A stretch of DNA of 11,311 bases. Source: Fibrobacteria bacterium (GTDB taxonomy: Bacteria > Fibrobacterota > Fibrobacteria > UBA11236). Made by a program: the position numbers. The DNA lies in contig JAYTHY010000076.1 in the NCBI GenBank assembly GCA_043732185.1, positions 1 to 11,311 of the forward strand, written 5' to 3'. Positions 3,001-9,000 of this stretch are shown piece after piece (position 1 is the first letter of the stretch; each line of letters opens with the position of its first letter).

Positions 3001-6000
3001 AACGGCCACGATTGGCGTATAAATCGGTGGAAAGCCAAGCTGAAGTGTTTGAAATGCGAGTTATAATATCGTTACGTGTGTACCGCCCTTCGACATCGAA
3101 AGGATAATAGTGGACGGAAATGGCGTCGGGCAGGAGGGGTGTAAATACTCCGTTGCCATTTATGTCCACAGTCCTGTCTAAGTTGCTCAATACCAAGGAA
3201 AAATATTGCCGCGTTGTGTAATTCAGTAGGGTTCCTTGGACCAAATTTTTGGCGTCATCAAGGGAAGAAGTCACGGCATTACTCGTATATAGGGCCAACC
3301 ATGGAGCAAGGACGATAATGGGAGGGAAAAATATGGATCCAAGATATGCCCCGATAAGAAATGTTGCAGCACCAACTCCTACGCCTGCATCTAATATCTT
3401 CTCATCTAAAAGTTCTCCAAAATGGGCTACGGCATCCTGCTTGATGAAGTCTCTGTCGAACAGTGCCCCTATGACGATCTCGGCGTTCGGATCAGCCCTT
3501 TTGATGACCTTGTAATATTCCCTGAACAAGACTGCGTAGTCCTGCGGAGAAATATAGGGGAACATGTTGGGCTCATTCCCAATTTCCCAAACGGTCCGAC
3601 GGGGACGCATGGCCATATTGTCCCGGAGTACGGCAGCTTGGATTTGCTTGGCGTCAGCTGCCGCTAGAGCGGCCGCCTTAGGCTGGAACCAGCGGAACCT
3701 CGGTCTATCGGCGACGCACAAGGAGGGAATACGGCTTTGGCAGATGCGTACTTGCCACCTACGGATGCAAGGAAAGGACACGGAAGTCCAGCAACCTTCG
3801 AATGGAAACAAATACCATCCTATCCTAGCCTTGATAAAACTATCGAGGTCGGACTTAAAGTTTCCTACGCTGTATCCAAAACCATCATGACGGTGATCGA
3901 ATGTGCCCACTTTTCGAACCACAGACACACCGGACACAGGATCGGCAGAAGCTGCTAAAGACGTAACGGTATAAGGCGGATTGGGTGGGGGCGGATCAGT
4001 GTGGTTACCATATATTTCATACCACTTCAGCTGCATTATCTGAACGAATTGGGTGGCACCCTCTCCAATTACGCCATACTCCAATGTGCCGCCTAGTGGA
4101 GGGATTTGAGAAATCAATGAGGACTGTGAAATTGATTTTTTATTCGTAAGAAATGGTCTCGGCAAAGTGCTCCAAGTAGGAGAAATCTGATCGGCGGTTA
4201 TTGTTTTCAGTAAGGAATCAAAATATGCCGCCGAATCCTTGATCACCGGCAGAACCGGAGGCTGTGCCACGACCGCCGTGACAGGAGCCGCAGGCATGTA
4301 CACCCCGCTTCCTCGACCGACGATTACCTTTTTCCCGAACAACCGACCATCTAATTCCACACTATCGCCCAAGATTATGTCGGCTTTTGGGGCCACGAAA
4401 ATTGCGCTAACCCCGGCAAAGGACCCGATGCAAAGTTGGTGATTCTGTTTGCTGTAAATGGTGAGCATCATGTTGCTGTCCCCAGCAATGGGCGTGATTT
4501 CGGCTTCGCGGCCAATGCTGACGTTTTTCTCCACATTTATCTGAATGGGGCCATCCGAAAGGTCTAAAGCTACCGAAGCCAAGCCATCCAACCAAAAGCC
4601 CTGGAAGTTATAAGTTCCGGACCGGAGGGTAAGTATAGACCGAGGTAGAACCCGGAGATACCTGTAAGTGCCAGGTCCTAGGATTTTCGGATGCTTATGG
4701 ACGAACACATCGTGTGTGCCCACGGGGATATCCAAAACCTGTGGTATCGGGCATTCTTCCCAACCAGGCATGTGCTCGATGACATCCGAAGCCACTTTTG
4801 AACCGTGCCCCCGGAATACTTGACCACCCACGGTGACAAGTCCATTCACGAGTGAATTTTTATGGAGCCAAGCATTGGAATCTGCTGTTACGGTGCCCCA
4901 CACCTGCGCCCTTTCTTCGACGACCACATGTTTCGCCGAACCTACGTTGCCACCAACAGCTACAGAGCTTTTCCTAAGTATTGTGGCTTCACGAGAGTAG
5001 ATGATGTATTGGTCGGAGCAATAGGGAAAATTCTGGGGCAATTCACCCTTGGCTTGAAGCCACAATCCAAAAACTATGGCAAGGAAATTCAGGGCAGAGC
5101 GGGAAGAAACCAAGAACATCACCAACCCCATTGTTAACTATCACATAATATAGGTGGAATTTCGAGATTCAGCTGCAACAATGGGACACTAAATTTTCGC
5201 AATTTCAAGCCACGATGTCCTATTATCCCTTATTACGCGCATATTTTACGCGTTCTTCCCTGTGCGCCACTTGACTCTAGAACCGGTGTGCGGAACAACT
5301 CGGCAAGAATTGCGAAACAGCCGACTTAAGGGATACGAATCGGCTCAAGTTCAGCTTCCACCATTCAACGGCCACCGATACCATCCTGGTCATCACCGAT
5401 AACCGCATTGGGCTTTCGTTGCGGCTAGTGATCCTCAAAACAAGAACCCTTGGCAGCAGGGCGGGGGTTGGGTTCAATTTCTTGGAAAGACGGTAATGGC
5501 ATTTCAAACAAGAACTCATCAACTTGGCATCCTGAGAGAATTAATTTTTCTTTTGCGCGCGTCTTATCCTCACGTAATTCGCGCCGCACACGACGTGCGG
5601 CGATTCGTATTTCCGCACCCCCATTGAACACAACGTGTGCCAGGGCGACGTGGATTTTTGGATTAGGGCCGAAACACGAGGACGAGAGCGAAGTGGTGGC
5701 CTGTGGCCGCCCGAAGCGAACGCCCGCAGTGTGCTGTGAAGGCCCGTTGAGAGCGAGTGGCGTTTCGCCGCGAAGCCTCTCAATGGAGCCTGAACAGCCG
5801 GACCAATCCAAAAATCCATGTGGGCGAAGCCCCGGAGCGGGGGTGGAACCCACGCGGAGCGCCCTAGCTGTGTTGTCCGATGTTGCGCCTCTTAATTTCT
5901 TTATGGGGTGGGTCTTCTCTTGGTATTGGTTGGTTGGATTTTTTCTGGGGTAGGGGCCCCAGTCCTAACTTCATAACTTCTTTCATTCTTTCCGGCATGG

Positions 6001-9000
6001 CGAAGTGCTTTCATTTTGCCATGCACCGATTGTGCGTGTATTGTCTGGCTTTTTCCTTGTTTTACCTGACTTCCCCATTTTGGATTTATTGGTTTTCTGA
6101 ATTTTTATTTGACTTAAATTCTTAGTTTGGATTGCTTTGGTTTTCTTCTCTTCCCACCCCATAAAAAATTATGAACTGGTAAATTGCCTTCCGGCCCATA
6201 GCCGGGGGGCAAGTATTTAGAGGTGCAATTTCGGACAACGTTAGCCACGCCGGAAGTGGCCTGGGAAGGCCGAAGGGAAGAAGCAACGAAATAATTTGCG
6301 CGCTGGGCGAGGATGTGAGCGGAGTGGGGAGTGCCGACCCCGGAGCGAACACCCGCAGCCCGCAATGAAGAAAAGCTGCGGCGCTAACGAAGCCGAACGG
6401 GAAAGACCTCAGAGAAAGTTAGCGCCGCGGCTTATTCTGAATTGCCGCGCAGCCTTCCCAGGCCATTTGCGAAACCGCAATGCGGAGCATGCCCGCGGTT
6501 TCCCGGCTGGCGGTGTTGCATGCGCCGCAGGCCGGCCAGCGTGTATCGCGCAGGCCGAGTTGTCCCACACACAGGGAGATGATATCGGCTCTTTCTTTCC
6601 GCCCACCCTCTTTTCTTAGCGCACTGGTTTTTCTTTATCACCTTATGGGGAAGGGGCCCCATTCTTCACGTAATTGGAGTAATTACTTTCATTAGGCAAG
6701 GCGAAGTGCCTCAGCATTTTGCCATGCGACGTTTGCACTTGCCTTATTTTTCCCATGGTCTCTTGCCTTGGCAGTGAAAGTAGTAGAATCCTTGAGACGT
6801 TTCTTTGGCCTCAGGACATAAGTCGAAGGAGATTTTCCTTCGTTTTTTTGGATTTTCCGGAAAGAATATAAGTTCCTTTTCCCATGCATCGTATTTGGCC
6901 AAGTAACTAGTCTTCCATGCCTTTAATTCGCTCTTTTGTAATTCCCGCCTGGGACGCGCGTATTCTTCTTTAGAAAATAGAGCAATTACCAGCGTAGCCC
7001 TCGGAAATTTGTTCATCATACATTCCCATGAAATATTGCGTAACATGGTCTTAAGGCTATCCTCGTTTTCTATTATCAAGGAGTCGTACGCCGAGACAAA
7101 AAGCGTGGCCTTCAACTGTTTTTTATCCTCGTCAAGGCTGATTCCGCTGTAAGGTGGTGGTGGAGATGAATATTTCCTGCGAGCACCCAATCTTTCTGCG
7201 GAGTGAATTTGGCTAATACAGAACGCCAAGCTCACTAGAAGGCAGCTACCCCAGGCGAGTTTCGACGCTGGCCGGAAGGCGTGCGCGAATAGCACGCGGA
7301 ACGCGACGCTTATTTTCTTCCTTTTTTGGAGCCCTTCGAACACGGTTCTTTCCCTTCCACGAGGACGGAAACGGCTTCCGACTGAAGATTGTCCACCCGG
7401 ATGCGATAATAGTATACAGCACCAACGTCTACGTTTTCATCCACAAATTTCCTTTCCGGGGTTCTCCCGATTTCCACAAATCCCTGCGTGGAATCCAGGG
7501 TTGACCGCATAACCCGATAATCTCCAGAACCCGTATGACGCCATTTGAGGTGAACTTCAGGTTCTTTGTCCTTAGATTTTTTCTCCTTGGCCTCCAAATG
7601 CATGACCACGGTTTGGATAAGGCTGATGGTGATTTGCAGTGGTTTAGGGGTTTCCACGTTTCCGGCAACGTCAGTTCCGAAAAACTCAATCTGGTAAACC
7701 CCAGCGGCTGATAGCGTGAGAGGACTGGAGGCCGCAACGCCATTGACCAAAAGGGAAAAGGCAGCGACACCCGAAAGCGCATCGACGCTCTGGAAATTGA
7801 TGGTCACGGAGCCATTTTCCGTGCCTGTGCCCGTGTAATCGTGAGAGGAAACAGGCGGAGTGAAATCATTGTGGATGAGGAGGGTATGGACCGGTTCCAC
7901 ATTGCCCGCCTTGTCCGTTGACCAAAATTCCACGGTGTGTTCGCCTTCTTCAGTCAGCGTGATCGCAGTGGTATCCTTGGCGTCACCACCATCCACTTTT
8001 ACGAATGTCTGGGCAACCCCAGAACCGGTGTCGGTAGCGGAAAAGTGGATGACCAACGGATTGATTCGATTCCAGGGTGCTTCCACGAAATCCGAGACCG
8101 TAACAGGTGGGATAACATCGTTCTCGTTGTTTTTATAGTTGACCGCTACCGGGTCGATTTGGCCTTCCACGGTATTCCCATGGATCAACTGGGTAGTTTC
8201 GGTTCCAAAGGCGTCGATCTTGATGATTTCCAGAGTATAGGGGCCGGATCCCGTTCCCACAATTTGGATTTGGAATTCTCCCTGCACCGGCTGGTTGATG
8301 TGGATGTATTTCACGGGGTCAGGATCCGGAGGTACGGGAAAGTCTGGAAGAGTGGTGAAAGAGGCTTCGCCCAAGGTGGCCGTTACATCGGGTATTTCAT
8401 CATAGGATATGCCATCGGCGGGATTCAGTCCCCTCCTTCTTCCCAGTGGGTCCACGATAAAGGCCTGTGCCGGAGAAAAAATCTGGAGGACAAGGCCGTT
8501 GGTTTTAGACTTGTCAGTTGGCGCCATGAACATGGCGTAAGAGAATTTGTTGTCCCAATCGATTTGTTTATTGATATCACCAATTTCACCATTCACCATA
8601 GCAAAATTATTTGCATATCCGACGTCGTTGATAAAGTAGGTTTTGACCCATTTGTTCTCGCGCTTCTTGAAATAGGTTTCGATTCCATTGGCCACCACAA
8701 AGTGGGTATGGTCAAACACCTTCAAAAGCACCGGGATTTTCCGAGCGAGATAATCTTCAATCAGGCTGGCATCGATCTGTGAAGCCTTGAATTCCAACTT
8801 GGTATTGCCGGAAAGACCATTGGTTCCTTTCAGCAGTTCAGGAAGATTGTAGGAAGGGAAGCAGACTTGGGTTCCGGGATCATCGGAACAGGTCCTGAAC
8901 AGATTCTTCTTTTTCACGTACCGGGCCAAAGTCAGGGGCGTGAGGTTTACCAATGCCGTTGAATTTTCCGCCTCTACTTTTGTGGCGCCCTGGGCATGCA

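Follow-up and report, generated by a model that had tools for sequence, protein, structure and literature searches.

The repeats in the window, a stretch of 11,311 nt from contig C76 of an uncultured Fibrobacteria bacterium (genome G000), are probably attC-class recombination sites of gene-cassette arrays. Sequence comparison confirmed them as real recombination sites of 250–290 bases, predicted to fold and flanking apparently mobile gene cassettes; the same comparisons established site boundaries, orientation, crossover point, fold and membership of arrays beside IntI/attI and beside a second recombinase, Rec2. The window contains long site a (5628–5878, plus strand, 251 nt, starting with ACACAAC and ending with GTTGTCC), long site b (6233–6521, plus strand, 289 nt, from GGACAAC to GTTGCAT, with a 27-nt insertion common to 4 of 33 aligned copies) and the incomplete long site c (11187–11311, plus strand, starting with ATGCAAC), which is truncated at the contig end. 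Using nhmmer profiles together with BLAST, the copies listed by an earlier survey were found again in G000: apart from the three on C76, they lie on C10 (6166–6433 and 3–126), C35 (5155–5419, 4184–4449 and 4–79), C113 (541–828), C100 (~87–268) and C107 (208–304). Over 38 near-full copies from G000 and its relatives, including one from the unpublished genome G011, the left end reads AAC in 36 and the right end GTT in 37, with terminal 7-mers of RYNYAAC and GTTRNRY, and each of the three AAC/GTT pairs is standard in all 33 aligned copies. The box-to-box length was 249–295 nt (35 measured copies), which upholds the survey's finding of sites about twice the published size and lies above the 57–141 bp given for attC sites in PMC5371416. 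Descriptions of attC sites present them as hairpins with only three unpaired features of importance; our literature searches turned up no attC site above 141 bp. Long sites were present in 21 of 41 relatives (BLAST tally, G011 included), and comparison of the whole window with Rfam again gave 0 matches at E≤1.

As single-stranded DNA, the sites fold with z-values of -5.7, -6.2 and -6.7 when compared to shuffled sequences. A consensus fold was calculated by RNAalifold from a MAFFT alignment of 33 copies (G011 left out): it exhibits 12 helices and 71 pairs, of which 55 have changed on both sides, the number of pairs being lower than the 91 counted previously because the consensus leaves out the variable 3' side hairpin. 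Paired cells amounted to 95.2% against 76.6% after shuffling (0 of 500) and 28–42% after sliding, with a covariation score of 0.517 versus 0.170, although the shuffle controls overstate the support since the aligned rows are related copies. The proposal of a conserved multi-helix fold with compensatory change was thus upheld on an independent alignment. Several short blocks are invariant or nearly so across genera, among them the TGA/GAA cores of GCAATGAA and TGAATTGCCG, an AAGTGG/CCATTT box and parts of CGAGGA. Both R and L boxes had been described as canonical, and here only the first half of the claim holds: the AAC/GTT of the R box is kept, whilst the L box is not canonical, as it exhibits no conserved extrahelical base. 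The stem in the L-box position is a 9–12 bp duplex without a conserved bulge: no extrahelical base is conserved across the 33 copies, most of which are without a 3'-arm bulge, and a 1-nt bulge on this arm is present in 4 of the 33 by our reading. The spacer between the R stem and this stem is unpaired and forms a small asymmetric loop, typically TTC in the 5' arm versus TT in the 3' arm. Extrahelical bases are held to be necessary for strand choice by IntI in the accounts given in PMC8946536 and PMC5371416; an extra G is present in a 249-nt family from genome G023 and in the short attC sites that share arrays with the long ones. On the plus strand we counted 136 G.T/T.G cells (71 once two invariant pairs are set aside) against 35 A.C/C.A cells, and all ORFs of at least 180 aa in the window (8/8) are found on the minus strand. 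Judged by sequence, the plus strand of the window is the bottom (folding) strand.

Mapping of the crossover to the AAC/GTT of the R box is supported by several sequence comparisons, which place it no finer than the invariant triplet. The L047 record and contig C35 of G000 share ~95% identity up to ...AAC and ~60% beyond; L141 and L142 part immediately after GGGGTAGTT. Among Logan contigs from sequencing runs, window positions 5632–6240 recur on a contig of run X5, which stems from another study, and the sequence before 5632 there is not that of the window; another X5 contig departs from the window after 6241 and an X2 contig departs at 6247. Further joints seen in the runs (5636>11238, 6540>11187, 6604>11162 and 6498>6564) have short sides of 23–49 nt and may be graph paths that run through repeats. 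Sharp breaks of identity occurred at the left end in 97/630 copy pairs, compared to 24/703 at points 30 nt inside, and at the right end in 35/595 compared to 3/595 (counts including one G011 copy). Matching of cassette ends averaged 15.6/25 for 14 adjacent pairs, against 11.7 (sd 1.75) for 385 other pairs, with a score of at least 19 in 6 of the 14: complementarity appears to reach ~20 nt past the R box and to be matched per cassette rather than per site. Hybrid cassettes also exist, in which a short-site end is combined with a long-site end; one enzyme must therefore handle both site classes, which blurs any scheme of one enzyme for one site.

Within the window, a site stands at the 3' end of each cassette, in a single orientation and opposite to the ORFs. 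Cassette D (5635–6239, minus strand, 605 nt) comprises its own site a, a 59-codon ORF (5983–6162, minus strand) and then its 5' end, which, read on the minus strand, occupies 6215–6239 of the plus strand and is complementary over 25 nt (84%) to the outer arm on the R'' side at 5872–5896 (plus strand). Run X5 holds this cassette in a different sequence context, both of its junctions there falling at AAC triplets. Cassette B (6240–11193, minus strand, 4954 nt) comprises site b and three minus-strand ORFs (6744–7343, 7310–9976 and 9992–10789), and its ends are complementary, 6515–6523 and ~6560–6572 pairing with 11170–11193. To the right of site b lies a type-B outer arm (6515–6610, plus strand) in which GTTGCATGC is followed by an inserted hairpin, TTGTCCCACACA and a CCGCCC run; copies on C35 and C10 share this arm, and a T-rich run is present 3' of type-B copies on the plus strand. 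The next cassette starts in 1–5634 (minus strand), with a type-C 5' end at 5580–5634, large minus-strand ORFs at 2618–5131, 2122–2682 and 100–2118, and a site that is not on the contig. Integrons do not usually have cassettes as large as these (4.95 kb and >5.6 kb, with several large genes), which counts against the attC reading.

The survey had assigned the sites to a chromosomal integron. This assignment stands in part: the position at cassette boundaries and the IntI/attI arrays of relatives argue for it, whilst the tighter link to Rec2 described below argues against it. IntI of G000, encoded on C132, reaches 375.5 bits where the cut-off is 265, as previously reported, and contains the IntI-specific insertion. 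Contig C7 of genome G002 exhibits IntI at 5019–6446, an attI motif near 4707–4728, long sites at 63–350 and 2877–3150 and, between these two, a canonical attC of 140 nt (~2193–2337); in the L047 record, the region upstream of IntI (98% identical to that of G000) holds an attC of 72 nt, a long site and an attC of 140 nt. In both cases, long sites and canonical short attC sites (72–140 nt) are interleaved between attI and a true IntI. Long sites also lie upstream of IntI in G006:C17 and G008:C262, ten long sites all share one orientation in G009:C85, and the attI position is marked in four genomes by a conserved motif (...CGTCTAAC|AATATTATTAACC) upstream of IntI. In G000, no contig joins a long site to IntI or Rec2, both genes being at contig edges, and no exact end overlaps were found among its array contigs, C132 and C11. 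Genome G023 (L051) contains two IntI genes and at least nine sites of ~249 nt directly upstream of IntI, and Rec2 was not found in it; its attC family differs from that of the window and keeps the extrahelical G. Thus, IntI-linked attC sites can reach this length in this bacterial family. One 166-nt short attC used as a BLAST query detected its family in 11 of 41 genomes, which is too insensitive for a table of site type versus enzyme.

Rec2 (G000:C11:75–1004), which the survey had overlooked, is an IntI-like recombinase without the IntI-specific insertion. Its members score 200–215 bits and thus fall below the TIGR02249 cut-off of 265, they are without ~41 residues where IntI has its insertion, model positions of ~177–239 are absent, and they keep all of the catalytic R, K, HxxR, H and Y; in a quick tree, Rec2 falls outside the IntI clade (SH-aLRT 99). 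A long site lies 0.8–3.2 kb from Rec2 in 10 of 12 loci, co-directionally in nine of these, and most long-site arrays with a known head adjoin Rec2. Immediately 3' of the Rec2 stop codon, a hairpin is followed by GTTRNRY, the hairpin-type first site overlapping the 3' end of the Rec2 gene itself, and the first cassette beside Rec2 was unrelated in 9/9 loci compared. Rec2 was found in 17 of 21 genomes with long sites versus 2 of 20 without, and IntI in 16 of 21 versus 5 of 20 (41 relatives, G011 included): as the genomes are kin, this distribution favours Rec2 over IntI only mildly. On sequence comparison, the long sites are tied more tightly to Rec2 than to IntI. Genome G016 (99% completeness) exhibits long-site arrays and two Rec2 genes with no IntI over the cut-off; in genome G013 (98% completeness), long sites occur with IntI, and Rec2 was not found. 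We also considered Rec2 as a cassette in its own right and rejected this, since no matched inverted end above background was found upstream of Rec2 in eight loci. In five Flavobacteriia genomes without an IntI that passes the cut-off, relatives of Rec2 head arrays of bulge-free hairpin sites; our literature searches turned up no account of insertion-less IntI relatives at the head of cassette arrays.

The explanations part mainly over the enzyme that acts on the long sites. It could be that these sites are ordinary substrates of canonical IntI alone, with Rec2 an unrelated gene or cargo at the array ends. The long sites lying between attI and further canonical attC near IntI in G002:C7 and L047 speak for this, as do those upstream of IntI in G006:C17 and G008:C262, the G023 sites, the combination found in G013 and the hybrid cassettes, in which long and short sites recombine together. 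However, window-type sites are without the extrahelical G that both G023 and the short sites keep, and the loci in which long sites follow Rec2, with their unrelated first cassettes and a defined junction after the gene, speak against it; the content of the nearly complete G016 and the distribution over the 41 relatives point in the same direction, and we consider sole action of IntI doubtful. Rec2 as the main partner of the long sites is, on sequence grounds, a proposition that we hold to be close to evenly balanced, and what probability remains lies with both enzymes, or neither, acting on them. Against Rec2 counts that, so far as such enzymes are described in PMC7790495, recombination of folded single strands is not known for any recombinase that lacks the I2 helix.

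Two further explanations would remove the sites from recombination altogether. A structured non-coding RNA transcribed from the plus strand, antisense to the cassettes, or a cis-acting RNA for which the place at cassette ends is secondary, would fit the multi-branched fold, the strong covariation, the short near-invariant blocks across genera and the T-rich run after type-B copies, and an antisense RNA would yield the same covariation and the same excess of G.T on the plus strand. We nevertheless regard an RNA as improbable: the element ends coincide with the AAC/GTT recombination junctions, arrays, orientation and end design are as in canonical attC sites, Rfam gave no match and there was no sign of a promoter. 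Less probable again, and to our mind highly improbable, is a passive dispersed repeat of the REP- or MITE-like palindrome kind with no part in cassette movement. Such a repeat would likewise be multi-copy, palindromic and contig-breaking, but the units between copies have matched ends, vary among close strains and swap neighbours exactly at AAC; in addition, the outer arms covary with no single sequence kept, unlike the inverted repeats bound by transposases, and copies occur only in arrays beside tyrosine recombinases.

When compared to integron attC sites as described in PMC5371416 (e.g. the Vibrio cholerae repeats of ~120–129 bp), the long sites share the position at the cassette 3' end, inverted AAC...GTT ends, crossover at G|TT, a bottom strand opposite to the ORFs, the unpaired spacer after the R stem, a variable or branched terminal structure and family-specific sites that are homogeneous within a lineage. 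They differ in length and in the absence of conserved extrahelical bases, in an interior of at least 10 helices with conserved sequence blocks, in complementarity that extends ~20 nt past the crossover and in several cassettes of at least 5 kb. A second comparison is offered by the DUF1874 motif (Weinberg et al. 2017, PMC5737381), a multistem structure in consecutive intergenic regions that was proposed as a possible unusual attC, and with its publication a branched fold is not wholly unprecedented. Both are multistem, repeated between consecutive ORFs and possibly folded single-stranded DNA beyond a hairpin; in contrast to the motif, for which the published account gives no integrase beside its runs, long-site arrays abut IntI/attI and Rec2 and their junctions were mapped. 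The two are set apart by this description, together with the lack of an Rfam match in the window. Rec2 differs from IntI (TIGR02249) in being mostly co-directional with the cassettes and in the first site over its own 3' end, and would belong with the insertion-less 'integron-like' simple tyrosine recombinases (Smyshlyaev et al. 2021, PMC8138268), members for which that account gives neither a genomic role nor a cassette array.

If the sites are of the attC class, a cassette would read, on the minus strand, TTRNRY, gene(s) and a 250–290 nt site ending in G. Its bottom strand would fold as single-stranded DNA into a short R stem, YAAC(G)/(T)GTTR, followed by the asymmetric loop, the 9–12 bp bulge-free stem and a three-way junction whose 3' arm bears a conserved side hairpin, beyond which the branched interior would be maintained by compensatory change. 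Strand exchange would take place at the 5' AAC of the folding strand, so that the cassette leaves carrying ~20 nt past the cut; in the excised circle, this stretch could lengthen the R stem by pairing with the opposite side of the cassette's site. Folding of the DNA in vivo and the identity of the cutting enzyme are points that we infer. Tentatively, long bulge-free sites may be native substrates of Rec2, which would then represent an uncharacterised lineage that never had the I2 insertion and has an integron-type platform of its own: the recombinase gene, a hairpin-type capture site over its 3' end and a co-directional cassette array, in which end-to-end cassette complementarity of ~12–25 nt would replace the extrahelical bases. 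Were this true, the same design in Flavobacteriia without a cut-off-passing IntI would make it a second, possibly older, kind of integron, and the I2 helix would not be required for cassette capture at folded sites.

IntegronFinder limits the size of attC sites to ~200 nt, and arrays such as these would therefore escape it or be filed as nothing. The existence of 250–295 nt sites with a conserved branched interior indicates that the limits of size and complexity for folded-DNA recombination sites are wider than assumed, and the link to Rec2 bears on how integrases shifted from double-stranded to folded single-stranded substrates. The association of Rec2 with arrays spans Fibrobacterota and cultured Flavobacteriia (Aequorivita, Oceanihabitans and Tenacibaculum), and the availability of cultured strains from the latter opens the question of this substrate shift to bench testing.

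The window, which is contig C76 of the source genome in its entirety, carries two complete copies of the long site between its ORFs (copy a, 5628–5878; copy b, 6233–6521) and a third, copy c, which starts at 11187 and is truncated at the contig end. Further copies in this genome (G000) lie on contigs C10, C35, C113, C100 and C107, several of them at contig ends, and here the coordinates of the survey's finding were recovered. Across 38 near-full copies collected from G000 and its relatives, one of them from the unpublished genome G011, the left aligned boundary was AAC in 36 and the right boundary GTT in 37, with RYNYAAC and GTTRNRY as flanking 7-mers and a box-to-box length of 249–295 nt; the range of 57–141 bp that had been quoted for attC sites is indeed the one found in a passage of the published source (PMC5371416). 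Folded as single-stranded DNA, the window copies were far more stable than their shuffles (z −5.7 to −6.7), and in a new alignment of 33 copies, from which G011 was left out, RNAalifold returned 71 pairs, 55 of them changed on both sides. In this alignment 95.2% of the cells were paired, compared with 76.6% after shuffling (0/500) and 28–42% with the partner slid, where the shuffle control overstates the support because the rows are related copies and the slid control is free of that weakness; the covariation score was 0.517 against 0.170. The repeat, its box ends and its compensatory fold are thus as first described, and the window again gave no Rfam match, here at E ≤ 1. The boxes had also been called canonical: this is true of the AAC and GTT ends, but the canonical L box is not kept, since past the R stem and a small loop (approximately TTC against TT) there follows a duplex of 9–12 bp with no conserved bulge. 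The short attC sites, in contrast, read GGTTAACC ... GGTTGAACC and possess the classical extra G. The DUF1874 motif had been put forward in 2017 as a candidate attC with several stems (PMC5737381).

The plus-strand helices contain 136 G.T/T.G cells (71 when two invariant pairs are subtracted) against 35 A.C/C.A cells, and the plus strand of the window is therefore the strand selected to fold. It lies opposite the cassette ORFs (all ORFs of at least 180 aa in the window are on the minus strand) and so corresponds to the bottom strand of integrons; the short canonical attC sites of the same arrays likewise have their extra G on this strand, in the 3' arm, which fixes the orientation independently.

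No G000 contig joins intI to a site, as the survey had noted, and the second recombinase described below (Rec2) is not joined to an array there either. Relatives show the sites near the integrase. On contig C7 of genome G002 (locus L041), a true IntI (5019–6446, 372.8 bits) has upstream of it the motif ...CGTCTAAC|AATATTATTAACC, a 372-codon minus-strand ORF and a long site (2877–3150), followed further upstream by a canonical 140-nt attC (approximately 2193–2337), a further two ORFs and a second long site (63–350), all sites having a single orientation. This motif recurs upstream of IntI in G009:C53, G013:C13 and L047, and as its right half only in G000:C132. As candidate attI, ...CCGT(C/A)TAAC|AATATTATTAACC, it maps to L041 4700–4730, L039 2393–2420, L040 1280–1305, L047 2313–2340 and G000:C132 at about 96–113, where other sequence takes the place of the left half (GAGCC|AATATT...) and the contig begins approximately 100 nt beyond it. 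In L047, whose IntI is 98% identical to that of G000, the order is attI, cassette, 72-nt attC, cassette, long site, 150-nt cassette and 140-nt attC. The IntI open frames run to 430–505 codons (G000:C132 ~400–1833; L041 5019–6446; L039 2643–4160) and the TIGR02249 match begins only at about residue 163; the first ~160 residues may thus form an N-terminal extension that matches no family, or else translation may start further in.

Comparison of neighbourhoods locates the crossover. A cassette of ~150 nt common to L047 and G000:C35 is ~95% identical up to ...AAC and ~60% identical past it, because different long sites precede the cassette. A contig assembled from sequencing run X5 (Logan, a different study) matches window 5632–6240 with 8 differences and ahead of 5632 carries 180 nt of different sequence, whilst a second X5 contig parts from the window after 6241 and one from run X2 at 6247: the 605-nt unit 5635–6239, comprising site a, a 59-codon ORF and its own 5' end, therefore occurs in a second sequence context too, with its cuts at the two AAC triplets. 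Such a unit has the structure of an integron cassette. Pairs of copies (one unpublished G011 copy again being counted, as it is for the lengths) showed sharp identity changes in 97/630 cases at the left end versus 24/703 at 30 nt inside, and in 35/595 at the right end versus 3/595 at 30 nt inside. Moreover, the 25 nt outside a site's GTT complement the 25 nt outside the AAC of the site that precedes it on the coding strand, the latter being the cassette's own 5' end: 14 adjacent pairs gave a mean of 15.6 matches, compared with 11.7 (sd 1.75) for 385 other pairs, and 6 of the 14 reached at least 19. Outer arms of several sequence types keep this pairing, and hence it is structure that is conserved and not sequence; in an excised circle, the matched ends would extend the R stem to ~20 bp or more. 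The interleaving near IntI, the breaks at the triplet and the matched ends agree in marking the elements as cassette boundaries. It appears likely from these comparisons that they belong to the attC class and recombine at the 5' AAC when the plus strand is folded. We hold an antisense structured RNA, and likewise a passive repeat, to be very improbable.

The ~150-nt cassette carries a 140-nt canonical attC, is nearly ORF-less and recurs in several genomes, at least twice in G000 (C35 5420–5611; C10 6434–6522; also L047 228–375, L045 and L013); in every case a long site lies directly upstream of it, and contigs often break there.

Searching the relatives with TIGR02249 also returned sub-threshold matches directly beside long-site arrays, a second recombinase here called Rec2 (in G000 at C11:75–1004, at the contig edge). 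Its members are 41–52% identical to one another, ~30% to IntI and 27–33% to the Xer-like proteins of G000; among NCBIfam models they score best with TIGR02249 (200–215 bits against the cut-off of 265) and with an archaeal XerA/integron-integrase model, and they are without ~41 residues exactly at the IntI-specific insertion, with the catalytic residues kept. A quick tree groups the 88 IntI rows in a single clade (SH-aLRT 99) and puts those of Rec2 outside it, toward two Xer-like outgroup rows, which is only a hint because the tree is a quick one with few outgroups and long branches. Rec2-like genes ~400 nt downstream of IntI in a Thermodesulfobacteriota MAG (L065, ~9321) and an Acidobacteriota MAG (L080, ~9311) branch next to the IntI clade in this tree. 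A long site lies 0.8–3.2 kb from Rec2 in 10 of 12 loci, with cassettes co-directional with Rec2 in 9 of these, and in the remaining two the contig stops within 1 kb; as a rule, contigs break off a few kb downstream of Rec2. A small hairpin followed by GTTRNRY coincides with the Rec2 stop codon or comes directly after it (in L042 at about 5140–5210), and there, by eye, the matched end of the first cassette starts (L042, L045, L133); upstream of Rec2 no matched end above background was found in 8 loci. The first-cassette ORFs were unrelated in all 9 loci compared, and between the Rec2 of G000 and a relative 95% identical to it the similarity is lost from the final codons on.

Rec2 relatives of ~40% identity occur in Flavobacteriia (Oceanihabitans, Aequorivita, Tenacibaculum and Aquimarina; L151 8790–10200, L153 and L155 8780–8850, L144 9500–13600), also with a hairpin and GTT after the gene. 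Four loci with downstream sequence show arrays of 130–200 nt repeats at cassette-like spacing, and three sites picked by scan share the end design of the long sites: YAAC, a G/T-rich spacer, a bulge-free stem of ~17 bp, NTT and GTT. In Oceanihabitans (L151) the cassette ends are, by eye, also matched. In two Aequorivita strains the recombinase gene and the hairpin match exactly as far as ...AATTGTT, past which the two are unrelated, the same break being seen between L151 and L152. None of the five Flavobacteriia genomes of this type has a TIGR02249 match over the cut-off.

Which enzyme acts on the long sites can be weighed from their company. Among 41 relatives (G011 included, though nothing claimed here depends on that genome alone), Rec2 was found in 17 of 21 genomes with long sites and 2 of 20 without, compared with 16 of 21 and 5 of 20 for IntI, a mild difference between genomes that are kin. 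In this material, bulge-bearing sites go with IntI and bulge-free sites with Rec2, and having long sites is characteristic of this bacterial family regardless of the enzyme it carries. In G023, a closed Fibrobacteria chromosome whose coordinates coincide with those of L051 and which yielded neither Rec2 nor any site of the window type, two tandem IntI genes adjoin a second attC family of ~249 nt (GTAGAAC ... GTTCTAC; L051 178–5164, G023:C1), unrelated to window-type sites, with at least 9 copies directly upstream of IntI at ~500-nt spacing and, in the centroid fold, a 3' arm with an extrahelical G. Window-type sites also adjoin attI (L041, L047), and there are hybrid cassettes bounded by one end of the short type and one of the long type; there must thus be at least one enzyme that works on both classes of site. 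As G013 has long sites with Rec2 not found, and G016 long sites with no IntI over the cut-off, the readings can only be given by degree: that Rec2 would be the main enzyme of the long sites we rate at, or slightly short of, an even chance, and that IntI alone acts on them, as the attI neighbours and G013 would allow, seems rather unlikely.

Few window ORFs could be named with Pfam: DUF6242, DUF7305 and Big_13 only, at or near their cut-offs. The 672-aa ORF at 100–2118 (minus strand, weak DUF6242 match) contains twelve tandem repeats of ~117 nt (39 codons; 613–2010) and its product is a repeat protein, probably, as a guess, a beta-propeller or similar, that sits in an apparently very large cassette. 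Two adjoining cassettes have in common a 32-nt block around GGGGCCCC (5943–5974 and 6643–6674) and, ~70 nt past it, a 21-nt block (6012–6032 and 6715–6735); both stand at equal distance from the respective sites, and a similar block is present on C10.
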